The translations under genes and the position numbers were made by a program. A stretch of DNA of 64,000 nt from Syntrophorhabdaceae bacterium (GTDB taxonomy: Bacteria > Desulfobacterota > Syntrophorhabdia > Syntrophorhabdales > Syntrophorhabdaceae), in the NCBI GenBank assembly GCA_963665295.1, contig OY762209.1, positions 3,584,001-3,648,000 of the forward strand, in the 5' to 3' direction. The notes below the pieces were generated by a model, which saw nothing but the letters and a program-made list of their open reading frames with translations, was not told the origin of the DNA and made no database searches. Shown piece after piece: positions 32,823 through 49,631 of this stretch (its first letter is position 1; each line of letters opens with the position of its first letter).

Positions 32823-32927
32823 AAGGGGGTGACGAGGCGTGTGACCGGTGAGTGACCAGGGCCGTGTCTCTTGCGGCGGCTGCACGATCGGTTGCATCGC
32901 CCCTTCCTGGTGGTATATCTTACTTGT

Positions 32928-33188
32928 GTGACCAGGATAGACAAGTTGCTGGCGAGGCTTCTGGCGCGCCCCGAAGACTTCTCCTATGATGAATTGAGAC
33001 ACCTTCTGTTCAGGTACGGTTATGAAGAAGTGAGACCGGGGAAGACATCGGGTTCAAGAGTGGGGTTCGTCAACCGGCGGACAAAACATATTATCCACCT
33101 CCACAGACCGCACCCCGGTCCGCACGTGAAGCTCTACCAGATTGAAATGATCATTGATGAACTGAAGGAAATAGGGGTAATCCCATGA
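32928..33188 (+). CDS. hicA: HicA-family toxin
   Basis: KLL.RL...P.DFSYDEL..LL...GY....GKTSGSR..F......I.LHRPHP; GTG start inferred. Confidence 0.82.
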   Translation: MTRIDKLLARLLARPEDFSYDELRHLLFRYGYEEVRPGKTSGSRVGFVNRRTKHIIHLHRPHPGPHVKLYQIEMIIDELKEIGVIP

Positions 33189-33409
33189 AAGACATGATGA
33201 GGCATAAAGGATTTGCAGGGTCCGTCCATTTCATCTCAGAGGAAGAGATATTCCATGGAAAGATTGAGGGCATCCCCGACCTCGTTACTTTTGAAGGGTC
33301 CACTATGGAAGACCTCAGACAAGCATTTCACGAGGCCGTCGAAGACTACCTTGCCCTTTGCAGGGAGGTAGGCAAGGAGCCCGGCGAATCGTGCAAGCTC
33401 CCCTTCTGA
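33185..33409 (+). CDS. hicB: HicB-family antitoxin, short form with no C-terminal DNA-binding domain
   Basis: KGF.GSV.F..E..IFHGKI.GI.DLVTFEG....L..AFHEAVEDYL..C...GKEP; overlaps the hicA stop. Confidence 0.82.
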   Translation: MKDMMRHKGFAGSVHFISEEEIFHGKIEGIPDLVTFEGSTMEDLRQAFHEAVEDYLALCREVGKEPGESCKLPF

Positions 33410-35355: not shown

Positions 35356-35988
35356 GTGCTCAGCAGTTCATGGATTGCGAAACACGTTCCTGCTGCCTGT
35401 CGTTTCATCTCTAACAACATCAGGACCGAGCTTAATCTTATCGACTGGGATAGAGTGACCATTACTCTCAGCCGTAAGTATCAAAAACGTTGGAGGCTGC
35501 ACGGATATAGGAGTCGTAAAACATATGAAGACGAGGCGGAACTCGATAAAGTTCTCAGTGTGTATCGTGATAAGCTCTATGTTTTTATCGCAATGTCAAA
35601 TAAGAAAGAGGAGGGATTGCGACACCAAATAGCCATCGCCCTCGTGCGGGTTTCGCAGAAAGGGAACGTATTGGCCACCCAGCGGCTTGTCGGCCTTCTC
35701 AGATACATCGTCGACGAATGGATTGACCAGCACTTTTTCCTCCGTCGCTGGCGGGGTGCCGAGAGCGAGATCGATGGAGTGATCGAAGGATGCATTCTCA
35801 GGTATCGATACACCGGCACCTTCTTTGGCTATCTTTTCAAAACCTTTGAATATAAGGCGTGTCGATTGAATGCGTTCCTTTCGCTGGACGACTATCTGCC
35901 TCGGACTGACAGGCGAATAGTCGATATTGTGGGACAGGGTTCTGCTAGCGGCGAGGAAATCAGGATGTACAATTCTCGACAAGTATGA
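35356..35988 (+). CDS. Hypothetical protein with weak sigma70 region-2-like pattern
   Basis: 210-aa ORF; LVRVSQKGNVLATQRLV, ILRYRY.GTFFGYL, SLDD; start unclear. Confidence 0.5.
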   Translation: MLSSSWIAKHVPAACRFISNNIRTELNLIDWDRVTITLSRKYQKRWRLHGYRSRKTYEDEAELDKVLSVYRDKLYVFIAMSNKKEEGLRHQIAIALVRVSQKGNVLATQRLVGLLRYIVDEWIDQHFFLRRWRGAESEIDGVIEGCILRYRYTGTFFGYLFKTFEYKACRLNAFLSLDDYLPRTDRRIVDIVGQGSASGEEIRMYNSRQV

Positions 35989-35996
35989 AGCAAATG

Positions 35997-36281
35997 CTAT
36001 TTGACCAGTTTGCGATGACGGACAAAAGCGCGCTTTTAGGGGGGCATGGAGGGAATGTTGATAGCGGCGCTTGGCCGAAGGGTTCCTTGATCAACGGGCG
36101 ATAGTCTGAGAACTTCTTCTGTCTATTCGATTGCTTTTTGGCCTGCCTGCCGAACGGCGGCGATGACGAAGTCAGTTATAGACCAATTTTGTAGCTCGAC
36201 CGCACGCTTGAGGACGGCTTGTAGCTCCTTGCTGATGCGCACCACTGAAAGATGCAAGGTCGGAGTAGTGGCTGAGCGCAT
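35997..36281 (-). pseudogene. Degraded DUF1778 (TacA-like RHH) antitoxin
   Basis: RISKELQAVLKRAVELQNWSITDFVIAAV...AIE*..VLRLS..DQ /shift/ ..FGQA.L /shift/ LKRAFVRHRKL; one in-frame TAG and two frameshifts. Confidence 0.75.
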
Positions 36282-36337
36282 GATACATTACTCAACAGTC
36301 CCCGAAGCTATTTTGGAAAAGCAAGCCTGCGCCCGCG

Positions 36338-37279
36338 TTACCTGATGTCCTGAGCGCATTTATCTATTTGCGAAACTAGTGCCATGGCCAAATCCTTAAG
36401 CGTCTTGAATTGAATTAGTGCAGGAGTATTGCCCACATATCTGAGGTGCGCCAGAAACAACGAAGATATGTATATCCAAAAAACATCGTCGTTGTTGATT
36501 GTTAACTTGTCTACCATAGACTCTATGCGTCTGGCTATACTTGGGTGAGACTCTGTCCCGGACCAGCCATCCTTACGTGTGATTACCAGCATAAAGAAGA
36601 ACGCGATTCCGATACCGAATGCCCTCTTTGTAGTAAGCCTGTCTATACTGTATCCGCTTGCCCTTGCGTAATCATCCAGTTTGTCGAGCATCAGGCTCTG
36701 CGCAAATGAATCACACTCGATTTCCTCTTCATGGGCATTGGCTGGCGTGTTACTGTCTGTTCGGAGCATGATGTGTTTCACCTCATGAAGAAAGACATAG
36801 GCACCAGCCATACATATTAAGTCGAATACCACAGAACCCTCTGGATCCGACGGCTTTTGATTCACAGGGTTTGGTACTGCCGCAGGCCACAGGAATAGAG
36901 CAGGGTCATCTACGCGGGACAGTTCATAAACCGAGTTTATCAAATCTCTATACTTGGATTCCCCCTCCGCTTGTCCCGGAATTCCGGAAACCGTGTACGC
37001 ATCGAGCTTACCCGTCCGCAACCTCAACCTGGCAAGTGTTGCTGACCACAAATTCAATGCTTGGTTTGCCGCGAAACCAAGCATCCACATCAGATGCATC
37101 GTTCTTTGCGTGAATTTCACTATGCCAAACGGACCAGCCTCTATGGAGAATCCCGGGCGGTCATCACAACGCAAAAAACAGGCACCAAATTCTGCAATAT
37201 ATTCATTTAGAATTTCCTGATTTTCCGGTACGACCCCATCAAAGAGCATTTTTATCTCATGTTCGGAGTCTACTCCCAC
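36338..37279 (-). CDS. Lit-like phage-exclusion zinc peptidase (peptidase U49 family)
   Basis: FDLICMAGAYVFLHEVKH (HExxH), EEIECDSFA, KRA.GI, SHPSI..RI; AAGGAGG RBS before GTG. Confidence 0.78.
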   Translation of the reverse strand: MGVDSEHEIKMLFDGVVPENQEILNEYIAEFGACFLRCDDRPGFSIEAGPFGIVKFTQRTMHLMWMLGFAANQALNLWSATLARLRLRTGKLDAYTVSGIPGQAEGESKYRDLINSVYELSRVDDPALFLWPAAVPNPVNQKPSDPEGSVVFDLICMAGAYVFLHEVKHIMLRTDSNTPANAHEEEIECDSFAQSLMLDKLDDYARASGYSIDRLTTKRAFGIGIAFFFMLVITRKDGWSGTESHPSIARRIESMVDKLTINNDDVFWIYISSLFLAHLRYVGNTPALIQFKTLKDLAMALVSQIDKCAQDIR

Positions 37280-37701
37280 CTTTCCTCCTTATGGCAGCGT
37301 GTCTCGGGCTTCTTAGAGCTTCGGGAATTCTTCCATTTTGAGGGACGGGTCCTGTCTTGCAAGGACGAGGTCCTGGTACTGGCTACGAGGATGGCTTTCT
37401 GGGAACAGAATCCTCGGAGATCAGTTGCTCGGGGTAATAAGAGCAAAGACCCGTTTGCCGACCCTGGTGGCTTCCACCTTTATATTCACGTCGGGCAAAA
37501 TCCCCTGGCTATGTTTCCACCAATTAAGATTTTCGGTATTCTCATGTACCTCGAGGCCATAGGAAGCTTCCCAATACGCATCGGTGATCACCGATTTTTC
37601 CGGAACCTCCATATTTTGGTATATCCCCTCCGTGCCAATATAAGTGAGACACTTCCCACCCAATAGTTTAGACTCTTGGGGGCGGGAAGGAAAGAACGAT
37701 C

Positions 37702-38100
37702 GTGGAAGAAAAGAAATCAGTCATGGCATCACCAAGGGTAGTCCCCGATCCGGAAGTACCGGAAAAGGCAGTTCGCCGGAAATTCACCGCGGCGTACAAG
37801 CTCCGTATCCTCAAGGAGGTGGAGAACTGTACCGGGAAGGGTGAGATAGGGGCGCTTCTGCGCAGAGAGGGACTTTATTCATCGAGCCTCACCTCATGGC
37901 GGCGTCAGGTTCACCAGGGCCTCATCCCGAAAAAGAGAGGACCCGTCACACAAAAGCCTGATCCCCTTATCCGTCGCACCATCGAACTGGAAAAGGAGAA
38001 CACGAGGCTCACCCATAAACTGAAACAGGCGGAGCTCATTATCGAGGTCCAAAAAAAAGTGGCCGAGCTGCTCAAGGGGTCGAGCGAGGAGAAGTCATGA
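37702..38100 (+). CDS. IS3-family transposase OrfA (HTH)
   Basis: RRKFTAAYKLRIL.E....GEIGALLRREGLYSS.L..WRRQ; A8G slippery run at 38051-38059. Confidence 0.9.
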   Translation: MEEKKSVMASPRVVPDPEVPEKAVRRKFTAAYKLRILKEVENCTGKGEIGALLRREGLYSSSLTSWRRQVHQGLIPKKRGPVTQKPDPLIRRTIELEKENTRLTHKLKQAELIIEVQKKVAELLKGSSEEKS

Positions 38101-39095
38101 ACATCACGCAATCGCTTGCCCATGAAGTGGGTATCCGCCCTGCCTGCAACGCCCTCGACGTATCCCGTGCGGGCTTTTACCGGTGGCAGCATCCGAAAGA
38201 GAAGGAACCTTTGAACCGTCTCTCTCCCTTGGCCCTCTCCTTCGGGGAACGGAACGATGTACTTGATATCCTTCATTCGGACCGCTTCATCGATAAAGCA
38301 CCCCGGGAAATCTACGCGGCCCTCCTGGACGAGAAGAGCTATCTCTGTTCAGTGCGCACCATGTACCGGATCCTTGAAGAAGAAGGTGAGCTGAAAGAAA
38401 GGAGGAGGCAGGTCTCCCGTCCCCGGTACGCAAAACCGGAGATCCTCGCGAAGGCGCCCAACGAGGCGTGGAGCTGGGATATCACGAAGCTCAAGGGTTC
38501 CGTAAAATGGACCTACTACTACCTCTATGTGATCCTCGACATCTACAGCCGCTATGTGGTGGGGTGGATGGTGGCCCACAGGGAACTTGCCGCCCTTGCT
38601 CGCAAACTGATCGCGGAGACCTGCGAGAAGCAAATGATAGAGCCCGGTAAGCTCCTGATCCATGCGGACAGGGGGTCGAGTATGACGTCGAAACCCGTCG
38701 CCCTGCTCATGGCCGATCTCGGGGTCACCAAGAGCCATTCGAGGCCTTCGGTCAGTAATGACAACCCCTATTCCGAATCTCAGTTCAAGACCATGAAGTA
38801 CCGGCCCGAGTTCCCTCAAAGGTTCGGCTCCATTGAGGATGCCCGGGCCTTTTGCCAGACATTCTTCCCCTGGTACAATACCGAGCATTACCATTCGGGG
38901 ATAGGTCTTCTCACCCCCGAGGACGTCCATTATGGAAGAGCGTTGAGGATCATTGAAGGTCGTACGGACGTACTGCGGGCTGCGTATGAAAAACATCCGG
39001 AACGGTTCAAGGGGAGGATGCCGAAACCGGCGTCACTGCCTGACGCCGTCTGGATCAATAAGCCATTATCAACGAGCGATGGCGGGGTACACTAA
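38097..39095 (+). CDS. IS3-family transposase OrfB (rve integrase-type DDE)
   Basis: PNEAWSWDITKL, DIYSRYVVGW, HADRGSSM, SRPSVSNDNPYSESQFKT.KY, YN.EH.HSGIG. Confidence 0.93.
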   Translation: MNITQSLAHEVGIRPACNALDVSRAGFYRWQHPKEKEPLNRLSPLALSFGERNDVLDILHSDRFIDKAPREIYAALLDEKSYLCSVRTMYRILEEEGELKERRRQVSRPRYAKPEILAKAPNEAWSWDITKLKGSVKWTYYYLYVILDIYSRYVVGWMVAHRELAALARKLIAETCEKQMIEPGKLLIHADRGSSMTSKPVALLMADLGVTKSHSRPSVSNDNPYSESQFKTMKYRPEFPQRFGSIEDARAFCQTFFPWYNTEHYHSGIGLLTPEDVHYGRALRIIEGRTDVLRAAYEKHPERFKGRMPKPASLPDAVWINKPLSTSDGGVH

Positions 39096-39981
39096 ATATC
39101 TGATGGAAGTGTCTCATTTTCATTGACACGTTCCGATCTGCAATCCGGATTGTCTAGCTGTCTCATTACTTGCTACTTGTACGGCCCTTAATTTTGGTTC
39201 GAACGGAATGCCTTCTTCAACGGAGAAGAGTTCCATTTGCTTCAGTTGGGACACCCGCCTTTCCTCCTCTTTCTTCAGGCCATAGTCGGCAATCACCAGT
39301 AGCTGGGGAAAAGGAGCTCTGGAAATGGCTCCTCGGATGGTTGCCTCACGGCTGGCGCTGGGACAAACTGTCTTTCTGAGCTCTTCGATAATGTCGAACG
39401 TCAGCCTTTTCGTTGATTTGGTCCTCGCCAGGAGTTCAGGTAAAAAGAGGGGTGTATAAAACGCAAAATCCCCCGCGATCCTATCAGCAAGCTTCTCTTC
39501 AGGTGCTTTCAAATCTTTCGGAGTTCTCCGAAAAAGTGCAGGCTGGCGGGATTCCGTCAGCACATGAGCCACCTCATGCCATTTTGAAAAATAAGCCCTA
39601 GTTTTTTTGAGCCCTCTACAGTCAATCACGGCTACATACTTCCACATTCTTGTGTTCTTTAGCCTTATCAGCACTGCGTCCGTCATCTTATCCAATTGTC
39701 CGGCTAGGTCCGCAAAAATGAGTTCGCCTTGAGAAGTATAGACTCTGGCCAAGTTGGAGATGTCTTGATCGTCATTGACCTCCTCAAAGCGGATGCCTAG
39801 CGCTGAACTTACAATCTCCAACAGGTTGTCGAGATCCTTGAGTTGGGTGAAAGGGGCTATTATCTTTTCGACTTTTCGGACACAGAATTCACGTATGGCC
39901 TTCTCGGGGTCTCTCAGTCTCTTCAGCCCTAAATCCTTAGCCATCCTAAGGACAACCTCAGAATCCTTTAATGCCTTCATT

Positions 39982-40392
39982 TTACTCCAGATAGTCTTTT
40001 AAACGGTCGTACAAGTCCCTCCAGCCTTCCTTCGTCATTTCCGTCTTCTCATTGGAGCTTCTCTTGGCAACAAGAGATCCGTGCGTGGTGAGGAGTGTCA
40101 CCGTGGACTTATACGAGAGTCCGAGCTCCTCGGCTAGTTCGGAAAGCTCCGAGGGTATTTCTGTAGGCCCACGTTTTTTGTCGTTCTGAATTGTCTCACC
40201 CTTCATTAAGTAATCCAACGAGGTGTTTAGAGTGTTGGCGATCTTCAAAAGATACTCTCCGCTAATGCTTGCCTTGTCATTCTCAATCTCACTCAAGAAA
40301 CTCTTGCTTATCCCAGCCTCGTGGGCAAGTCTATCCTGGGTCCATCCCAACGACTGCCTCAATATTTTGATCCTCTCTCCTGGTCTTGGCAT
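39982..40392 (-). CDS. capH: XRE-family HTH repressor, CapH-like
   Basis: GERIK.LR...GWTQ..LA..AGISKSFLSEIEN; C-terminal helix WRDLYDRLKDYLE; coupled to the HExxH peptidase gene. Confidence 0.75.
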   Translation of the reverse strand: MPRPGERIKILRQSLGWTQDRLAHEAGISKSFLSEIENDKASISGEYLLKIANTLNTSLDYLMKGETIQNDKKRGPTEIPSELSELAEELGLSYKSTVTLLTTHGSLVAKRSSNEKTEMTKEGWRDLYDRLKDYLE

Positions 40393-40468
40393 TCCGTCAC
40401 CTGCCTCCTTTTCTCAGTTAACCAAAAACGGGATACAGGTTTTCCCATCTCCATAGATGATATTCCTC

Positions 40469-40565
40469 TTGACATCGTCTTTAGCGAACAATATAATATA
40501 TAGCGAACATATACTCTGATAGCTTCGCTATAGAATATCATATGGCACAGCGAGAAGCCTGTCAA
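40469..40565. promoter_or_regulatory. Face-to-face sigma70 promoters with repeated TAGCGAA operator half-sites
   Basis: Plus: TTGACA(40469-40474)-17-TATAAT(40492-40497). Minus: TTGACA(40565-40560)-17-TATGAT(40542-40537). TAGCGAACA at 40482 and 40501; inverted TTCGCTA at 40524. Confidence 0.78.
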
Positions 40566-40599
40566 GTAAATTTGGGTTCATTGTAAGGAGGAGTTGAAA

Positions 40600-41766
40600 A
40601 TGTCATCAACCATAACATTTTTTCCCGTCGGCAATGGTGATATGACCCTCATAAAGTTGGCCGATAAGACCACGATACTTATCGACATTAACTTACGAGA
40701 AATCGCTGAAGATGAACAGGATCCGAGTTGCGATGTGCTAAAAAAATTAAGGGAGAAGCTTGAGAAAGACCTCGAGGGGAGGCCCTATGTAGATGTTTTT
40801 CTCTTAAGCCATCCCGATCAGGACCACTGTAGAGGTCTAAAGAAGTACTTCCATCTCGGACCGTTGGCCGACTACAACACCAAACCTGATGAAGGAGAGG
40901 AATTGAAGATTGTCATTCAGGAGATGTGGTCCTCGCCCATAGTATTTCGAAGGGCAAGCAGGAATAATCCGCTGTGCGAGGACGCGAAGGCATTGAATTC
41001 AGAGGCCAGGAGGAGAGTCAATCTGTTTAAAGAAAAGGGGTCTGCTCTTGGCGGTGATCGAATCATTATCATCGGAGAAGATGAAAACGGGAAAACCGAT
41101 GGCTTGGATGCGATTCTTGTTAAGATAGATGAGGTCTTCAACCGAATTAACGACAAGATGAGTGACGAAATCTCTATGCGGGTCTTGGCACCGTTGCCGT
41201 CACAAGGAGACTCGGAGGAACAGAATCTCAGGAAGAATCATTCGAGCGTGATCCTTCAACTATCGTTCACCGTTGACGGGCGGCAGGACTCTTGCCTGTT
41301 TCTAACCGGTGGAGATGCTGAAGTATACGTTTGGGAAAAAATGTGGGGCAGAAAAAAGGACAGGCCATCCGACCTCAAATATGATCTCCTGTTGAATCCC
41401 CACCATTGTTCGTGGCACTCGCTCTCTTACGACAGTTGGAGCGAAGACGAAGATCCCCAGGTTAACCAAGATGCCAAATCTGCCCTCTCTCAATGCAAGG
41501 CCGGCGCGTTTATTGTTTCCAGCAGCAAGCCCATCAAAGACGACGAAAGCGATCCGCCTTGTTGGGGGGCGAAACAAGAGTATTTGGATATACTGAGGCA
41601 GGCGAAGGGGCAATTCTATTGTACGGGAGAATATCCTACTGAGAAGAACCCTGAGCCATTGACTGTTGTTGCGACAAAGGAAGGTTTCCAACCACCGTCA
41701 AAGAAAAGCGCATCGATGTCTGCGATCATAGCAGGCAGCACAAGAGAACACCACGGCCATGGGTAA
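40600..41766 (+). CDS. Metallo-beta-lactamase-fold (ComEC-like) hydrolase ending in Gly
   Basis: ITFFPVGNGD.TLI, ILIDIN, FLLSHPDQDHCRGL, N.SSVIL, LTGGDAE, PHHCSW; ends ..REHHGHG*; AAGGAGGAG RBS. Confidence 0.85.
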   Translation: MSSTITFFPVGNGDMTLIKLADKTTILIDINLREIAEDEQDPSCDVLKKLREKLEKDLEGRPYVDVFLLSHPDQDHCRGLKKYFHLGPLADYNTKPDEGEELKIVIQEMWSSPIVFRRASRNNPLCEDAKALNSEARRRVNLFKEKGSALGGDRIIIIGEDENGKTDGLDAILVKIDEVFNRINDKMSDEISMRVLAPLPSQGDSEEQNLRKNHSSVILQLSFTVDGRQDSCLFLTGGDAEVYVWEKMWGRKKDRPSDLKYDLLLNPHHCSWHSLSYDSWSEDEDPQVNQDAKSALSQCKAGAFIVSSSKPIKDDESDPPCWGAKQEYLDILRQAKGQFYCTGEYPTEKNPEPLTVVATKEGFQPPSKKSASMSAIIAGSTREHHGHG

Positions 41767-44116
41767 ACAAAAGAAAAGGATCTCTACAAAAGGCGGGGAT
41801 ATACGTATAGCCCCCTCCTGCACGAGAGTCCATCCGGAAGCCGAATGTGCTTGGAAGGTAGTTCGCGCCCACCCATCAGTAGCGGGAGAAGTCCCTTTCC
41901 CTGTATTATTGCGGGATGGAGGCTTCCAGATGACTTTCGACATGGATGTGGCTCTGCCTTCAAGGGCCAGAGCAAGGGGGATAAGTCGAACTAGCGTAAG
42001 ATCCAAGGAACAAATTGAGCTCCTGTTTCCTCCCGCGTATCCATACAGGGCTCCACTAATTTTGTTAAGGCCAGATTTCAACAAATTCCTTGCGCACATG
42101 AACCCCGTACTACGGGTTTCGGGAAGAGACTACGTGTCTCCCTGTGTCTACGAAGGCCCGCTCGAGGAGTTGCTCCACGAAGAGGGCGATGGGCTAAGCG
42201 AGATACTCAATCAGCTTTCAGATTGGCTTAGTAAAGCGGCCATCGACGACTTGATAGACACCAGGCAAGGTTGGGAGCCAATCCGTCGAGATCGCCTGTT
42301 GGGGTGGATGACATACGATCTCTCGCGTATCAGGTCACATGCGGAAGATAGAAGGGGTTCGTCAGTATTTCCGTGCAACGTATGGGTATCGACGGGTCCG
42401 GAAGAGACGTTCGGCAATGTATGGGTAGCGGATGAGAAGAAGATGCGCATCACCCCTCTGCTTGTTCGAAGCTGCTTCATGCCGGACGGTAACCAGAGTC
42501 CCTATGGTGCGTGGTATAGATCCTTGACGATCCTCGCATGGGGCGACTCAACATCGATTGTTGGCCGGTATCTTCCTGAGAGCGTCACGAATTTTCGTCA
42601 GCTATGCGAGAGAGCGAAGGATTATGGTCTCCTTGATGTTTTGAGTAGCGCCATCGAAGATCTCAGGTGGGCCGCAAAAGAGGGATCTCGCGACCTTCAC
42701 CGTTTCTTGCTTTCCGTAATTCTCTGCGTCAGAAGGCCCTGTCACTTAATCGGAGATGCTTCGTCGCTTGAGCTCATTCCATATATTGTTTGGTGTGAGA
42801 CCGAGGAATGTGTCGGCCCATTGGGGGAGCCTGTCATAAGAATCGATGCAGATTCAAAGGTTTTGCCACTAGCGCACCGACACAAGGTGACAAAACGGCT
42901 TCTCCAAAAGATGTCGGGCCGGAAAGTGTCAGTGGAAGATGGTCCTATCGTTTGCATCGGCTGTGGAAGTGTAGGCTCCAAAATGGCCATGCATCTTGCC
43001 CGCTCTGGTTATGAGTCCTTCAAGCTCATAGATAGGGCCAGTTTCTCCCCGCATAACATGGCGCGGCACGCGTTGACGGTTGCTTCGCACGCACCGTTGC
43101 CGAAAGCGGTACTTCTTGCTGAAGAGATCAAGCTGCTCGGACTAAGAGCAGAAGGGGTAAACGAGGATATTGTCGACTTAATCAGTGACCAGAACGAGAA
43201 GCTATCCGGCGTTCTCAACAAAGCACGTTTGATCATCGAATCAACCGGGTCTATGGCAGTCAGAGATGTCCTGGTCTCGCTGCCCCCCCGGAGATTTTCG
43301 GGGAGGTTGATGCACACCATACTTTACGAGGAAGGAACCATAGGAGTTATGGCGATCGAGGGCACCGGAAGAAACCCCAACGTGAATGACCTAATCTTGC
43401 AGTTCTATGACGAACAGGTTGATAACGAACGCCTACCGCCTCTTTCTTCTCCGCAAGCTGGAACAAGACGTTATGAGATTGGACTTGGTTGCGGATCGCA
43501 GACAATGATCATGCCTGATACTCGAGTTTCTTTATTCTCTGCGGGAATGGCTGAGCGGGCTGCCCAGATTCTCGAAGGCAATGACGGCGGCCTCTTTGAA
43601 GGAGAGCTTTGGGTAGGGACACTTGACAAGAAAAGGATAGGCGTTTCTTGGAAACTTTGGAAGATTGGGCAGACAAGAATCTTGACCTTCGCGGGAAATA
43701 ATTTGTGGCACATAAGGATACTTGACCGGGCGGCAGAGCAGATGTCTGTGGAGGTAAAGAAGTGGGCAGACCTGGAGACTGGCGGCGTATTGATGGGCAG
43801 AATCTCGTTATACAACCGGTCATTCAATGTTTCGAGGGTGGTAGAAGCTCCTCCCGATTCTATAAGATCAAAGAACTCATTTGTTCTTGGCACCGAAGGA
43901 CTGATGAAGACGGTGCAACGCATACACGAAGAATCGGGCGGGGTGCTCACCTATGTGGGGACCTGGCATAGCCATCCCAAGGGTGGGGCGGCATCATCCA
44001 TCGACAGGAATTGTCTGGAAGAGCTTAGACGGGTTCGCCTTGGGGTGCCGGCGGTGGGTGTGATTTGGACTCCGTCCGGATTTCGAGCAATTGCAGATGA
44101 AGGCAAACTTGCTTAA
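41759..44116 (+). CDS. Prokaryotic E2 - ThiF/E1 - JAB fusion protein (ubiquitin-like conjugation/deconjugation enzyme)
   Basis: E2-like FPPAYP..AP...LR.DF...AH.NP...PCVY; E1 IGCGSVGSK, LID..SFSPHN.ARH, GLGCGS.T; JAB ETGGVL.G, YVGTWHSHP....S.ID. Confidence 0.87.
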   Translation: MGKQKKRISTKGGDIRIAPSCTRVHPEAECAWKVVRAHPSVAGEVPFPVLLRDGGFQMTFDMDVALPSRARARGISRTSVRSKEQIELLFPPAYPYRAPLILLRPDFNKFLAHMNPVLRVSGRDYVSPCVYEGPLEELLHEEGDGLSEILNQLSDWLSKAAIDDLIDTRQGWEPIRRDRLLGWMTYDLSRIRSHAEDRRGSSVFPCNVWVSTGPEETFGNVWVADEKKMRITPLLVRSCFMPDGNQSPYGAWYRSLTILAWGDSTSIVGRYLPESVTNFRQLCERAKDYGLLDVLSSAIEDLRWAAKEGSRDLHRFLLSVILCVRRPCHLIGDASSLELIPYIVWCETEECVGPLGEPVIRIDADSKVLPLAHRHKVTKRLLQKMSGRKVSVEDGPIVCIGCGSVGSKMAMHLARSGYESFKLIDRASFSPHNMARHALTVASHAPLPKAVLLAEEIKLLGLRAEGVNEDIVDLISDQNEKLSGVLNKARLIIESTGSMAVRDVLVSLPPRRFSGRLMHTILYEEGTIGVMAIEGTGRNPNVNDLILQFYDEQVDNERLPPLSSPQAGTRRYEIGLGCGSQTMIMPDTRVSLFSAGMAERAAQILEGNDGGLFEGELWVGTLDKKRIGVSWKLWKIGQTRILTFAGNNLWHIRILDRAAEQMSVEVKKWADLETGGVLMGRISLYNRSFNVSRVVEAPPDSIRSKNSFVLGTEGLMKTVQRIHEESGGVLTYVGTWHSHPKGGAASSIDRNCLEELRRVRLGVPAVGVIWTPSGFRAIADEGKLA

Positions 44117-44235
44117 CTTAACTGATCCTGCCCCGATGATTGAGCATTGAACGTGAAGGAGGACACGATTCTTTGGTTTCCGAGATCGAAGACTATGGCT
44201 GAGGGGTATATATTTATCTTCACGGAGGCACATAT

Positions 44236-44868
44236 TTGACAAAACCACTGAAGGAACAAAATCGTTGGCAGATTTGGCTCATCGTTGCGGTGAATACGGT
44301 TTTTCTATGTGCCTTAGTGCAAGTCGATGCCATTCAGGCCGTAAACTTCCGAACTATTTTCGAAAGTACCGAGAGCTTTCTGTCGCCTGCCCTTGCAATT
44401 ATTGTTTCGACAGCTCTGAATGGGCTATTAAGCGCCGACAACAAGGCACGCTTGGTGTTCTTACGGTGGCGATACGCTTTACCAGGCCATCGCGCTTTCA
44501 CCCAATACGGCAAGTTCGACCCCCGGATTGACCTGGACAAGCTGACAGAGGCTCAGGGTATAATGGTTCCTACCGACCCCACCGAGCAGAATCAGCTCTG
44601 GTATCGTCTCTATAAGACGGTTGAAAATAGTCCTGCCGTCTTGCAGACCCACCGTGATTTCCTCCTTATGAGGGACTATACCGGCTTGGCGGCATTGTTT
44701 GTTCCGTTCCTTGGGGCGATAGGATTCTACGCTATCGCATCTATAACAACGTCTTGCGTCTATTCTCTCTGTCTCCTGGGGCAGTATTTGGTGGTGCGCC
44801 AGGCAGCCGCGCATTATGGTATTCGGATGGTTGCTACTGTTCTTGCTCAGAAAATGATACACCCCTGA
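44236..44868 (+). CDS. Multi-pass membrane protein of unknown function
   Basis: About 4 hydrophobic segments around a soluble LPGHRAF..DPRID..EQN.LWY.LYK..HRDFLL.RD loop; GGAGG RBS before TTG. Confidence 0.72.
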   Translation: MTKPLKEQNRWQIWLIVAVNTVFLCALVQVDAIQAVNFRTIFESTESFLSPALAIIVSTALNGLLSADNKARLVFLRWRYALPGHRAFTQYGKFDPRIDLDKLTEAQGIMVPTDPTEQNQLWYRLYKTVENSPAVLQTHRDFLLMRDYTGLAALFVPFLGAIGFYAIASITTSCVYSLCLLGQYLVVRQAAAHYGIRMVATVLAQKMIHP

Positions 44869-44917
44869 CTAATACATTAATAACCCATGCCTGACGCAAA
44901 GCAAGTTGTGCAGTAAC

Positions 44918-45119
44918 TGTAGATTGTAAAATACATTTGACTCCTTCTTCGCAATAGGAATGGGGGAACCGTTTTCTTGCTCCGCAATTTTCACAACCAC
45001 GACTGCAGATCATTCGGCTCTCTTTTGCAGGACTTCCGGCGATTCGGAGAAGACTACACCGTCAGCCATGGGTCAATTCAATCCGATGAGAGGGGGTCAA
45101 ATGTATTTGATAATCTATT
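44918..45119. mobile_element. MITE-like non-autonomous element (202 bp) with IS21-like ends
   Basis: IRs TGTAGATTGTAAAATACATTTGACTCC (44918-44944) vs reverse complement of 45093-45119 AATAGATTATCAAATACATTTGACCCC; extra GGGTCAA at 45070; no transposase. Confidence 0.65.
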
Positions 45120-45242
45120 CCTTTTTTATGCGGGTCCCTACGCGTTCTCTGGATTAATAATGGCCCTGATGTCTCCTCGGTGGGTAAACTTTCGGATAGA
45201 TTAAGACATGCATTTATCGTATGCTTGATGGCAGGAGGGGAT

Positions 45243-45788
45243 ATGAAACCCGAGATAGTTGTTAGTATCTGCGCCGTGTTTATTTCGGTATTGTCGCTCG
45301 TACTTTCGGCGTATTATGGGTGGTGCACCCGAGACCATAATAGGCGATCGGTAAAACCGCTGCCTTATGTGTCACCATCCGATTTTGAGAACTTGATATC
45401 GGTTCGCTTGTGGAACTACGGCAATGGGCCATTGATTTTAAAGGACGTCATTGCACGCGGAAACCAGGATGGTGTGTCAGGTCACCTCGTCGATTTACTC
45501 CCGGAGCTTCCGGACGGTCTGTACTTCAATAGTTATGTTAAGATCTTACGCGGTAGGGCCATCCCACCGGGAGGGAGACTTACTCTTGTCGAATTCAGCC
45601 CCGACGTTAATGATATTAAGGCGATCGCATACCGAGAGAAGCTTCGTGATGCCCTTGGGCGCCTATCTGTTGATGTCGATTTTACGGACATTTATGACAC
45701 AGCCTTTCTTACCTACAACAGAGATTTAACATGGTTTCACAGAACGAAACATGCCAATCGGGCGATGCTGCCCCGAAAACATGGTTAA
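45243..45788 (+). CDS. Hypothetical protein with N-terminal membrane anchor
   Basis: TM helix, HNRRSVKP, NYGNGP..L pattern; AGGAGGGG RBS. Confidence 0.65.
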   Translation: MKPEIVVSICAVFISVLSLVLSAYYGWCTRDHNRRSVKPLPYVSPSDFENLISVRLWNYGNGPLILKDVIARGNQDGVSGHLVDLLPELPDGLYFNSYVKILRGRAIPPGGRLTLVEFSPDVNDIKAIAYREKLRDALGRLSVDVDFTDIYDTAFLTYNRDLTWFHRTKHANRAMLPRKHG

Positions 45789-46425
45789 CATAGCTGAAGC
45801 ATTCCTCCCTTTTTTCTCGATAGGCGCTCCACTTGGAAGGCCGCGAATGCTGAATCTCGCCGTTCTTCGGACAACTTCCACGCTGTGAAATGGATAAAAG
45901 CATCTATGTTATGTTCGACAGCTCCACTGAATACACTATTCCGGGCAATGGCTTTGTCAAGCTCTAAGAATTCCTTCTTACGACCTCCGACGCGTCCTTC
46001 GTTGGCCAAGTGGAGATCAGCGTAAAAATAGCCACTGCCAATTCGATTCATTATTGTCAAATTCAAAATACGTTCGGTCGAGATAAGGCTGCGTTGTGTG
46101 AACTGGGAGGGAAAGGTGAGGAAATACGGGTGGTTATGGGGAGGGGGGATCGGGAAGGGGAGGGGTTTAGAATATTAAACGGGGAAAGAGGGCGGTCGGG
46201 AAAAAGCGGGGAGAGGGGGAGGGATGCGAAACGAAGCAGGACAAAAAGAAATACAAAAGAGGGTGGGACGAGAATTCTTGGAGAGGGGCGTGTCAAAGTT
46301 TGGCACGGCACTGCATGTGAGGCGCCTCCGATCTGTTCTGCTCACTCCGGCGCAGGTCTTCACGAATTGCACCAACACGGTTCTACCGCTCAGCGCTGAA
46401 GCAAATCGATTTTGTCGTGACGGAT

Positions 46426-46689
46426 TCAATCGCCAATCGTGTGGCGTCCCCTCAATAACGTTCCTCCCCCCCTCTCCTCCGTGACCAGTTCGCTCATAGG
46501 CTTGCCGGCAACGCGAATGGAGTCCCTGAATTTCTTCTGATCCGCCAATATCTCCTTTCTTTCGGAGGATACAGGAACGAGGCGAGCCACACGTTTGCCA
46601 TGGCTGGTAATGATCACCTCCTCACCGGCTATGACCCGTTCGAGAAGAGAGCTGAATTTGGCCCTTGCTTCTTTCACTCCAATCTCCAG
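46426..46689 (-). pseudogene. Orphan Phd/YefM-family antitoxin, probably decaying
   Basis: EIGVKEARAKFSSLLERV.AGEEVIITSHGKRVARLVP; no in-frame ATG after the RBS; apparent +1 slip in a G7 run; no toxin gene downstream. Confidence 0.72.
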
Positions 46690-46947
46690 ACATCCTCCCG
46701 TTCAATGGCCGACGTGCACCATCAGGAAATAATCCCATGCTCTATGCGAAGAATCAGTTGTTCCACTTCTCGGGCGCCGCCGTCAGCCTGGAGTACATCG
46801 ATCGCGATAGCGCCACCGAGACCGTGCTGTGGGGTCCGGACATCCGCCGATAGCGCGGCGAATCGTCGATTATTTTCTTGGTTTACAGGTGACCGGAATA
46901 TTGATTAAACATAGTCTGGAATAACAGTGAGCTTAGACTATGAGGCC

Positions 46948-47751
46948 TCAGGCAATATCGATTCTTCGGTCGAGATACCCGACCTGTTCTTCATAGTAGG
47001 AATCCCAGTACCCGCCATACCGACTCCTGATGAAACTCGAAAACCTTTCGGCCATTCCCCGTTGTTCGTGCTTATCGGTTAGAATAAAGTAGGCCCTGGG
47101 ACTATATGGCCAATAGCGAAGGGCAAATATCTTGCCGCTTGGGTTGACATGTTCTCTCAATTGGTCAACCCTTGCCCGAATCTGATTCTCATGAGTCCCG
47201 TTTCGGTTGAGGTGGTGATAAATGACTGTGACATCTTTGTCTTTTGTCAATATGGACACTTCTGAGTAATAGGTAAACTTTCCCGCTTTGAGCTGACTTA
47301 TCTTCGAGCATGAAGGTATTTCCAGACCGTTGTCTGGATCAAGAAATATTACGTTGCACCCAGATACCTTCAAGGCGGCCCTCCTCAGCCAGCGCTTTCT
47401 GTTAGCTTCCCTTTCTCCCTTGTCCTTTTCGCGTTGGGAAGGATATTTTAGATGAAAATCGAGCGGTTCAGAAAAATAAACGGTATTCCCGGGAAGTAGT
47501 CCTGCTTTTTCAAGAGCTGTGACGGAGCGATGACCACGCACTATCTCCGACAACTTCTCGCAAAGGTCATCGTCGCAGCACCGAAAGGCACGGTTCGTTG
47601 AATAGTCTACGTGCCGACCATCGTCGTTGTGGGATTCATCAGGGAAGAGGTACCAAATTACCCCTAATCGGTTCTTGGGATCGCTCAGCAAATAACGCAG
47701 GAGCAAGAACTTCCCGAAGTCTCCGACATCCCCGGCATATCTGTTTTGCAT
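46948..47751 (-). CDS. Conserved-looking hypothetical protein with a methyltransferase-like DPDNG motif
   Basis: MQNRYAGDVGDFGKF.LLR, VIWYL..D, VIFLDPDNGLE, VIYHH. Confidence 0.65.
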   Translation of the reverse strand: MQNRYAGDVGDFGKFLLLRYLLSDPKNRLGVIWYLFPDESHNDDGRHVDYSTNRAFRCCDDDLCEKLSEIVRGHRSVTALEKAGLLPGNTVYFSEPLDFHLKYPSQREKDKGEREANRKRWLRRAALKVSGCNVIFLDPDNGLEIPSCSKISQLKAGKFTYYSEVSILTKDKDVTVIYHHLNRNGTHENQIRARVDQLREHVNPSGKIFALRYWPYSPRAYFILTDKHEQRGMAERFSSFIRSRYGGYWDSYYEEQVGYLDRRIDIA

Positions 47752-47807: not shown

Positions 47808-49631
47808 TTACTCCACTGTCACGCTCTTTGCCAGGTTCCGGGGCTGGTCTACGTCGGTACCGCGGAAGTTGGCGATGTGGTACGCGAGGAGTTGGAGGGG
47901 CACAATCGCGAGTATGGGCTGCAACTCGTAAATGGTCTCCGGGAATACGAAGGTTGTCTCCACCCTTGACGCCATTTCGTGGTCATCGTCGTCGGTAAAG
48001 AGCAGGGTCTTGCCTCTTCTGGTGATTGCTTCTTCCATGTTGCTGCACGTCTTCTTGTACGTGTGGTCTCTGGGGGAGACGACGACGATAGGCAGATTTT
48101 CATCTATCAGAGCGATAGGTCCGTGCTTCATCTCTCCCGCCGCATACGCCTCGGCGTGGATATAGGATATCTCCTTCAGCTTGAGGGCGCCTTCCAGGAC
48201 CGTGGGATAGTTGATACCTCTCCCCAGGTAGAGGAAATCTTTGTAATTCATGTACTTCCGGGCGAATTCCTCCACTTTGGAAGCCCCGTCGAGAATAGTC
48301 TGTATCTTGTGAGGCACCTTCTTGATCTCTCCGATAAAATCCCTCACTTCATCAGCATTCATGATGCCGAGTTTCCTCCCCACGTGAAGCATGAGGAGAT
48401 AAAGGACGGCAATCTGGGTGGTAAATGCCTTTGTGGAAGCGACGCCGATCTCGGGCCCGGCATGGGTGAATATCACTCCGTCGCACTCCCTCGCAAGGGT
48501 GCTTCCGAGGACGTTGCAGATGCACAACGTGTAAGCTCCGTTCCTTTTGCCTTCCTTCATGGCGGCGATGGTATCCGCTGTCTCTCCCGACTGGGAAATG
48601 AGGATGAGCATGTGGTCTTTGGTGATGATGGGATCCCTGTACCTGAACTCGGACGCGATGTCCGTCTCCACGGGTATCCGGAGGTTTGCTTCAAACATCT
48701 GCTTGCCTATCATACACGCGTGGTACGAGGTGCCGCAGGCGACCATCCATATTTTCGTTATATTGCCGAGATCGGGCAGTTCCAATTCCTCAAAATCGAC
48801 CTCGCCTTTTTCTTCCTTGATTCTGCCGATAAGGGTCTCGGAAATGGCCCGTGGCTGCTCAAAAATTTCCTTGAGCATAAAGTGCCTGTAGCCGCCCTTT
48901 TCGGCCATGGCTCCGCTCCAGTTGACCTCATGGATTTTACGCTCCACGGGCAGACCGTTCGTCGTGGTGAGGGTGAAACCGCCGTTCTTGAAAACGGCCA
49001 TGTCATTATCTTCCATGAATATGAACCGGTTCGTCCGGTTGAGGACAGCGGGCACGTCGCTCGCAATGAAGTACTCGCCGACCCCCACACCTATGACAAG
49101 GGGACTCTCTTTCTTTGCCGCGATCATGGTCCTTTCGCCTTCTCTTATTATGCCAAGGGCATAAGACCCCTTCATCTCACCCAGGGACGCTCTCACGGCT
49201 TCGACAAAGTCGAGACCTTTGTCCAGGTAGCTCGTGATGAGATGGGGAATGACCTCGGTGTCCGTGTCGGAAAGGAACTCGTGACCGGCCTTCTTCAGCT
49301 TCTCTCTCAGCTCCATATAATTTTCCACGATGCCGTTGTGGACCACAACCACGTCGCCTGCGCGATGGGGATGGGCGTTTCTTTCGGAGGGGGTTCCGTG
49401 GGTCGCCCACCGCGTGTGGGCGAGGCCGAGGGACCCTTTGAAGGAGTCCGTGCCGCACACCTCTTTACGCAACTCGTCAACCTTGCCCTTCTTGCGTCCT
49501 ATCTCTATCTTGCCTTCGTGCCATATGGCGATCCCCGCCGAATCATATCCCCTGTATTCAAGTCTTTTCAAAGCGTCAATGAGCATATCGCATGCTTCTT
49601 CGCTACCCTTGTAGCCGACTATCCCGCACAT
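47808..49631 (-). CDS. glmS: Glutamine--fructose-6-phosphate aminotransferase
   Basis: MCGIVG, LEYRGYDSAG, HTRWATHG, SQSGETADT, GVASTKAFT, PRNLAKSVTVE. Confidence 0.99.
   Translation of the reverse strand: MCGIVGYKGSEEACDMLIDALKRLEYRGYDSAGIAIWHEGKIEIGRKKGKVDELRKEVCGTDSFKGSLGLAHTRWATHGTPSERNAHPHRAGDVVVVHNGIVENYMELREKLKKAGHEFLSDTDTEVIPHLITSYLDKGLDFVEAVRASLGEMKGSYALGIIREGERTMIAAKKESPLVIGVGVGEYFIASDVPAVLNRTNRFIFMEDNDMAVFKNGGFTLTTTNGLPVERKIHEVNWSGAMAEKGGYRHFMLKEIFEQPRAISETLIGRIKEEKGEVDFEELELPDLGNITKIWMVACGTSYHACMIGKQMFEANLRIPVETDIASEFRYRDPIITKDHMLILISQSGETADTIAAMKEGKRNGAYTLCICNVLGSTLARECDGVIFTHAGPEIGVASTKAFTTQIAVLYLLMLHVGRKLGIMNADEVRDFIGEIKKVPHKIQTILDGASKVEEFARKYMNYKDFLYLGRGINYPTVLEGALKLKEISYIHAEAYAAGEMKHGPIALIDENLPIVVVSPRDHTYKKTCSNMEEAITRRGKTLLFTDDDDHEMASRVETTFVFPETIYELQPILAIVPLQLLAYHIANFRGTDVDQPRNLAKSVTVE

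Follow-up and report, generated by a model that had tools for sequence, protein, structure and literature searches.

6A-MBL is an anti-phage system built around a metallo-β-lactamase (MBL) fold hydrolase and a single polypeptide that joins E2, E1 and JAB domains; its experimental validation is reportedly due to van den Berg et al. 2024. The locus described here lies in a 64,000-nucleotide stretch of DNA (the window) from a Syntrophorhabdaceae bacterium (assembly GCA_963665295.1, contig OY762209.1, positions 3,584,001 to 3,648,000), where a gene for a transmembrane (TM) protein follows the two core genes and a divergent regulator precedes them. In the accessible text of the papers concerned, the two-gene operon was defined as type 6a by Iyer, Burroughs and Aravind in 2006 (PMC1779556), two papers cite 6A-MBL as an anti-phage system with experimental support (PMC13276650, PMC13700489), and it appears on a list of jumbo-phage defences (bioRxiv 10.1101/2025.09.30.679545). 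Conjugation of the MBL-pathway enzyme has already been stated (PMC11601596). According to the same kind of partial text, a 6a operon of Methylobacterium oxalidis consists of CapP-like, CapH-like, hypothetical, metallohydrolase, E2-E1-JAB and second hypothetical genes (Lau et al., bioRxiv 10.1101/2022.04.27.489752, Fig. 6F), so that the pairing of CapH/CapP with 6a operons is already catalogued, and CapH/CapP also stand beside Bil operons (Chambers et al., PMC10557695). Two further points of reference are the cyclic-oligonucleotide-based anti-phage signalling system (CBASS), with its type I and type II forms, where the phospholipase CapV is one of the effectors (Ledvina et al., bioRxiv 10.1101/2022.03.31.486616), and the PDC set of Payne et al., whose accessible main text does not mention M48 (bioRxiv 10.1101/2024.01.29.577857).

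A new copy of 6A-MBL

The operon contains the following features (positions within the window).

40600..41766 (alternative start 40594), + strand: 6A-MBL enzyme, 388 residues, ComEC-like MBL fold; HPDQDH at 71-76, D239, HH at 268-269; C-terminus ...REHHGHG, the flexible tail ending in H387-G388
41692..41766, + strand: low-complexity tail of the MBL with terminal His-Gly, proposed conjugation handle from comparison of homolog tails
41759..44116, + strand: E2-E1-JAB fusion, 785 residues (Pfam and NCBIfam); E2 C129; E1 GxGxxG at 401-406 and C578; JAB E673/H737/H739/D749
44236..44868, + strand: TM-A, hydrophobic 3-4-TM protein of 210 residues, unnamed family, conserved polar central domain, candidate effector

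Because both core proteins exceed the cut-offs of their NCBIfam models, at 441.1 bits against 220 for the MBL (NF058524, 6A-MBL_enzyme) and 520.7 bits against 320 for the fusion (NF058523, 6A-MBL_cap2_3), the locus belongs with near certainty to the 6A-MBL anti-phage system, an identity that a preliminary description of this DNA had suggested. That description was also accurate on the open reading frames (ORFs), the HPDQDH motif, the REHHGHG tail and the coupling of the first two genes, which are adjacent and co-directional, the fusion start overlapping the MBL stop by 8 bp; the gap between the fusion and the TM gene is 119 bp. Among the proteins scanned from the surrounding genomic island (10 against PADLOC and NCBIfam, 12 against Pfam) none matched a CD-NTase or pyrimidine cyclase family, and no beta-grasp ubiquitin-like gene was found among the operon ORFs or the family matches; the lack of a CD-NTase and of a ubiquitin-fold gene had been noted before. 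The spread of the system is patchy: an MBL above the NF058524 cut-off occurs in 6 of 96 genomes of the class, and a fusion above the NF058523 cut-off in 5 of 401 genomes sampled from the phylum, this genome being counted in both. The nearest relative is a Syntrophorhabdaceae metagenome-assembled genome (locus L001), with an MBL 84% identical to that of the window.

The locus is best regarded as a new copy of a catalogued system, with a regulator of known type that is probably broken in this genome. It points to a gap in the definition of the 6A family, and the observation behind this, concerning the third gene, is family-wide and does not take its weight from this locus.

The third gene of 6A operons

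A set of 86 loci was reduced to 55 by clustering at 90%, and to 33 non-redundant loci with full context. A membrane-acting gene, encoding either a member of a 2-4-TM family or a patatin, was present in 32 of the 33: TM-A in 11, the families TM-B and TM-C in 12 and 5, patatin in 2 and a fourth TM type in 2, one locus having none. Its position varies (3' of the fusion, 5' of the MBL, or behind a divergent WYL gene) with linkage kept, and stop/start overlap with the TM or patatin gene is often seen in other 6A loci. As the profiles came largely from these 33 loci, 13 held-out loci were examined, namely four new matches in the phylum and nine plasmid records hand-picked from 281 for taxonomic spread. 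Twelve carried TM-B or TM-C (9) or patatin (3), the patatin profile having been made from two in-sample loci after the held-out patatin annotations had been seen; the thirteenth had an unclassified 2-TM ORF directly downstream. Judged by these gene neighbourhoods, the membrane gene is a near-universal, swappable and under-described slot of the 6A family; it is probably a functional part of the system, and may be its actual killer. The membrane partner of the preliminary description was real and undersold. The survey of neighbourhoods called for there returned, besides the membrane-acting gene, the XRE-peptidase pair in 9 of the 33 loci. As for earlier cataloguing of the whole architecture, the core pair and the CapH/CapP pairing are in print, as far as the accessible text goes, and no description of a third membrane-acting gene was found, a weak negative given thin coverage of subscription papers and preprint supplements.

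TM-A of the window showed three TM segments in a hydropathy scan, and a homolog (P0122) four; the AlphaFold model consists of helices throughout, four of them long (pLDDT, the predicted local distance difference test score, 85), which makes the count of about four given earlier a fair one. A threshold of E ≤ 0.001 gives the family 1481 representatives, and the near-invariant residues of its central polar part are Lys, Pro-Gly, Asp-x-Arg, Asn, Trp and Arg-Asp. It was nevertheless found in few genomes (5 of 401). No Pfam, NCBIfam or PADLOC family matched TM-A, and its model gave no Foldseek match at E ≤ 0.001, the best VIA Z of 7.5 leading to generic helical bundles. In the ESM Atlas TM-A and TM-B fell into unnamed clusters only, and profile comparison between the two gave an HH probability of 4% (E 0.0095), with weak cross-matches. 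TM-A, TM-B and TM-C matched no PADLOC model, CBASS effector models included, and one sister patatin matched a PADLOC phospholipase effector model weakly (E 1e-3).

Contexts were also collected starting from TM-A (16 contexts: 10 of 22 plasmid records, four genomes and two viral contigs). Seven were 6A operons, eight had a ComEC-like MBL or MBL fragment and no ligase within the 4-7 kb fetched, and one had neither, so that an MBL adjoined TM-A in 15 of the 16. The commonest ligase-free MBL matched PADLOC PDC-M48B (E 5e-152 to 2e-98). Ligase-free MBLs paired with TM-A carry no Gly tail; in this second MBL family 1 of 16 complete sequences ended in Gly, and none of the five without a nearby ligase. 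From these comparisons the constant unit appears to be the MBL with its membrane-acting gene, ligase and Gly tail arriving together as an add-on. At four loci (L073, L089, L116 and L132) the 6A MBL, the fusion, the TM gene and a second, PDC-M48B-like MBL form one run of four genes, which suggests that a ligase-free MBL+TM pair can dock onto a 6A operon.

It could be argued instead that 6A-MBL is self-sufficient with two genes and that the TM gene is a passenger from MBL+TM cassettes common in defence islands. The two-gene definition (NCBIfam; accessible text of PMC1779556), the occurrence of TM-A with other MBLs and the 119-bp gap in the window favour such a view; the recurrence of a membrane-acting gene in 32 of 33 in-sample and 12 of 13 held-out loci, often with overlapping stop and start, and the rarity of TM-A itself (5 of 401 genomes) make it very improbable.

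The MBL tail and the E2-E1-JAB fusion

The MBL begins at an ATG (40600) preceded by AGGAGGAG, and its motif residues are unchanged across 31 aligned homologs. In the 120 best of 3273 MBL homologs, Gly is the final residue of 100, with His in front of it in 98; 18 of the remaining 20 run on briefly past an HG, and two have no tail. Similarly, the 75 distinct 6A tails from the fetched loci comprise 52 with a final Gly, 21 with [HA]G among their 15 C-terminal residues and two with neither. Since the His-Gly-stop codons of the window (CAT-GGG-TAA) contain the ATG of the fusion gene, the overlap could force the motif; this explanation was rejected, as the overlap is missing from 25 of 56 tails that end in Gly. 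Conservation of the terminal Gly together with intact catalytic residues argues strongly that the MBL is itself the moiety conjugated by the ligase, through that Gly. The preliminary description had proposed the MBL as the modifier and conservation of its terminal Gly as a check; the proposal fared well and proved not to be new (PMC11601596).

The fusion, described from the outset as a single chain with E2 Cys, E1 GxGxxG and Cys, and a JAB motif, matches Prok-E2_A, ThiF and Prok-JAB of Pfam in that order, each above cut-off, as well as the E1-E2 and JAB models of PADLOC. C129 is kept in all of 60 fusion proteins, and C578 in 59, as are E673/H737/H739/D749. The best PDB match of the fusion profile is Cap2, with the alignment limited to the adenylation core. 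Variants were seen in other loci. In L037 (314-3790) the fusion has 1158 residues; in the approximately 400 extra C-terminal ones, motifs like those of metallophosphoesterases were seen by eye, and the ligase may here carry a fused effector. In L161, on an E. coli plasmid, an IS3 element splits the fusion gene, and in L129, on a Pseudomonas syringae plasmid, the 6A copy is fragmented; a TM gene is kept in both.

Proposed mechanism and its alternatives

The favoured reading, given a probability of about 0.55, is that the 6A-MBL operon works by analogy with type II CBASS, the MBL hydrolase taking the place of the cyclase. The E1 domain would adenylate the terminal Gly388 of the MBL, which would pass via Cys578 to Cys129 of the E2 domain and then onto an amine of a target, while JAB would reverse the link and, in relatives, trim the short tail extensions. 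Such reversible conjugation would toggle the MBL on and off. Once active, the MBL would trigger the membrane effector encoded by the third gene, which is TM-A in the window and a protein of another TM family or a patatin in other loci. The most plausible go-between would be a small product resembling a nucleotide, with death or dormancy of the infected cell as the outcome. That effectors of unrelated folds share one slot is easier to explain by a diffusible signal than by a fixed contact; that such a signal links MBL and effector is given somewhat less than even odds. Should the third gene prove necessary, the MBL would be a trigger more probably than a killer. In a sister locus that bears a patatin, any signal could be read out directly as enzyme activity.

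A constant MBL and membrane gene with ligase and Gly tail as an add-on parallels type I and type II CBASS. In a wider and decidedly tentative version, 6A-MBL would correspond to type II, and the ligase-free MBL+TM pairs to type I, of a signalling immunity that has so far escaped recognition. In it a ComEC-like MBL, in place of a cyclase, would produce a novel second messenger, and this would open pores of 4-TM proteins or switch on a patatin. Conjugation would prime or silence the MBL, and TM-A would be a receptor-effector for the messenger. If true, a hydrolase-made messenger would join bacterial immune signalling, and a TM family of about 1,500 clusters (50% identity) would gain a function.

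Several considerations weigh against a CBASS-like mechanism. MBL folds hydrolyse rather than synthesise. TM-A showed no recognised ligand-binding domain or fold match in family and structure searches, and the intact form of the CapP-like peptidase described below matched neither M78 nor any other Pfam family, nor any PDB entry. Because the Cap2 alignment covers the adenylation core only, the roles of C129 and C578 are assigned by conservation and position. The in-sample loci themselves supplied the profiles for TM-B, TM-C, TM-D and patatin, and independent support for the slot consists of the 13 held-out loci, nine of them hand-picked, and the upstream TM copies. NCBIfam and the accessible text of Iyer 2006 treat the system as two genes. 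All the evidence for the mechanism, conjugation included, is comparative. Conjugation may also silence its substrate, as reported in the accessible text of PMC11153139 for a CBASS cyclase held on PspA until Cap3 releases it. Finally, the best characterised defence MBLs, which are protease-gated, are described, in the available part of bioRxiv 10.1101/2025.11.14.688446, as Zn-dependent nucleases of double-stranded DNA that kill directly.

The last point underlies a different and rather doubtful account, in which the MBL is a toxic DNA nuclease that conjugation licenses or localises (to a phage protein, the phage nucleus or the membrane), the TM protein being an anchor or sensor that binds the MBL directly. 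By sequence the window MBL had no meaningful PDB match; that its nearest PADLOC models are LmuA and the RT-associated MBL, that 6A-MBL stands on the jumbo-phage list cited above, and that TM-A adjoins some MBL in 15 of 16 contexts all accord with this account. Several unrelated TM families and a patatin in one slot are awkward for a single direct contact, and the ligase-free MBL+TM-A pairs without a Gly tail imply that TM-A need not be a conjugation target.

In another account the membrane protein is a toxin and the MBL a brake, degrading an activator or restraining the effector, until conjugation or JAB cleavage lifts it on infection. Hydrolysis suits the MBL fold, as is generally known, an effector gene is nearly always present (32 of 33 loci), and sequestration of a substrate on PspA by Cap2 until release by Cap3 offers a precedent (PMC11153139, accessible text). 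This account is nevertheless unlikely: the loci examined encode no source of an activating signal, and L129 and L161, with a broken fusion and an intact TM gene, fit only if the MBL alone restrains the TM protein.

Regulator and broken peptidase

Upstream of the operon the window contains the following features.

39982..40392, - strand: XRE/HTH_3 repressor, CapH-like (ORF list; HTH_3 E 2e-18; PADLOC capH E 1e-11)
40469..40565, no strand assigned: divergent promoter region with operator-like boxes (consensus match)
39120..39980, - strand: CapP/IrrE-like HExxH metallopeptidase, 5' part (codons 1-281), running into an insertion sequence (IS) (PADLOC capP E 6.6e-6)
37626..39135, + strand: IS3-family element, orfA 37702-38100 and orfB 38097-39095 (NF033516 above cut-off)
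37421..37625, - strand: 3' remnant of the peptidase, about 66 codons (tblastn with the intact relative, E 2e-27)

The repressor gene is divergent from the operon, and the promoter region is common to both. The promoter toward the MBL (+ strand, TTGACA-17-TATAAT, 40469-40497) matches the sigma-70 consensus at 12 of 12 positions, and that toward the XRE gene (- strand, TTGACA-17-TATGAT, 40565-40537) at 11 of 12. Three boxes lie around the -10 element, TAGCGAA(CA) at 40482 and 40501 and the inverted TTCGCTA at 40524; promoters and boxes are kept in the relative L001, and the 9-mer occurs six times in the 5.5-Mb genome, two of them in this promoter region. We infer that the boxes are the XRE operator. 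In the reading modelled on type II CBASS, the CapH-like repressor would bind these boxes and the CapP-like peptidase would relieve repression on DNA damage.

In this genome the peptidase gene, which lies just beyond the span covered by the preliminary description, is cut. That description had missed the break while pointing to an XRE/peptidase switch, of which the CapH-like repressor and the capP match are both present. Residues 1-281 are encoded at 39980-39136 and the remainder at 37625-37421, beyond a 1,510-bp IS; the window part is 83% identical to residues 1-281 of the intact 347-residue protein of L001, and HEVAH (135-139) is intact. A full-length HExxH peptidase with a C-terminal GAF domain is absent, the gene being cut after codon 281. 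The target duplication is a 3-bp ATC, and the genome holds 10 near-identical IS copies (37626-39135 and nine other sites) with short imperfect terminal repeats and 2-3-bp or no target duplication; one copy spans an extra 1.9 kb or so. The IS as an assembly artefact was rejected, as contigs from two samples (two studies) end at the IS on both sides. No empty-site joint was listed in these two samples, where contigs lose rare variants and one sample may be the source. In CapP, single-stranded DNA binds between the peptidase and the C-terminal GAF domain (PMC13228613, accessible text); by analogy the truncated enzyme, having lost what is putatively the GAF domain, probably cannot be activated, and the operon would stay at a basal level. 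With the gene split by a recent IS the switch is probably broken, and inducibility is likely to have been lost in this genome.

The combination with an XRE/peptidase pair, offered earlier as perhaps undescribed, does not hold up as such: the pairing is listed in the accessible text of Lau et al. 2022, and it is one of several upstream neighbours, the 33 loci having a divergent XRE+peptidase pair in 9, WYL in 8, an hsdS-like gene in 6 and others in 10. In the hsdS-like cases (L002, L039, L045, L055, L056 and L069) this gene is short and is the first of a type I restriction operon that runs divergently from the 6A operon; the divergent neighbour in L058 and L081 is a sigma-54 activator. L096 (4379-5335) has upstream of its 6A operon a HATPase_c gene, possibly a CapK-type regulator.

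Island neighbours

The operon sits in a lower-GC island (35356-47751) ending beside the 3' end of a gene at 47808 that we take, from its sequence, to be glmS; the 3' end of glmS is the usual attachment site of Tn7. No tRNA was found in the window. Small genes at 32871-33409 resemble a HicA/HicB pair, and one at 46426-46677 resembles that for a Phd-type antitoxin. ORFs 45204-45788 and 46948-47751 had no Pfam, NCBIfam or PADLOC match and no homolog in related loci. ORF 35356-35988 (210 residues), likewise without a match in these databases or a homolog in other loci, looks sigma-factor-like by eye in its C-terminal half; sigma factors adjoin some capH/capP loci (accessible text of Lau et al., bioRxiv 10.1101/2022.04.27.489752). 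One further gene had been named as a part of the module.

36338..37279, - strand: Lit-like (Peptidase_U49) gene (PF10463 above cut-off; NF007238 below cut-off)

No homolog of it was found in any other 6A locus searched. It was rejected as a module partner, being without a match in the other loci searched and replaced in the intact relative by a different, 270-residue gene.

Comparison with known systems

The window agrees with 6A-MBL in having both core proteins above curated cut-offs, in the same order and with the same coupling; it differs in a third, unnamed TM gene outside the two-gene definition and the model libraries, and in an IS-disrupted regulator. A close published layout, as far as the accessible text of Lau et al. 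shows it, is that of M. oxalidis, with divergent CapP-like and CapH-like genes followed by metallohydrolase, E2-E1-JAB and hypothetical genes. In M. oxalidis a further hypothetical gene, lacking in the window, precedes the hydrolase, and the window peptidase is longer (347 residues when intact), matches capP weakly and is split.

Resemblance to PDC-M48 is indirect: strong matches to the MBL component M48B come from the second MBL family paired with TM-A, whereas the window MBL matches M48B over its N-terminal 80 residues only, no TM family found here matched an M48A model, and M48-type MBLs have neither Gly tail nor ligase. The combination of an M48B-type MBL with an M48A partner is absent from the window. 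From Bil and Bub the operon is set apart by the absence of a beta-grasp ubiquitin-like gene.

Type II CBASS and Pycsar differ from the window in their CD-NTase or cyclase, which the window does without; here, moreover, the Cap3-like JAB is fused to the Cap2-like part, and TM-A matches no PADLOC CBASS effector model. The likeness to these systems lies in a Cap2-related E2-E1 with a JAB peptidase, whose proposed substrate is an enzyme other than ubiquitin with a flexible C-terminal end. They also have in common an exchangeable TM protein or phospholipase as effector, here a candidate one, and the existence of a two-gene form that does without the ligase.

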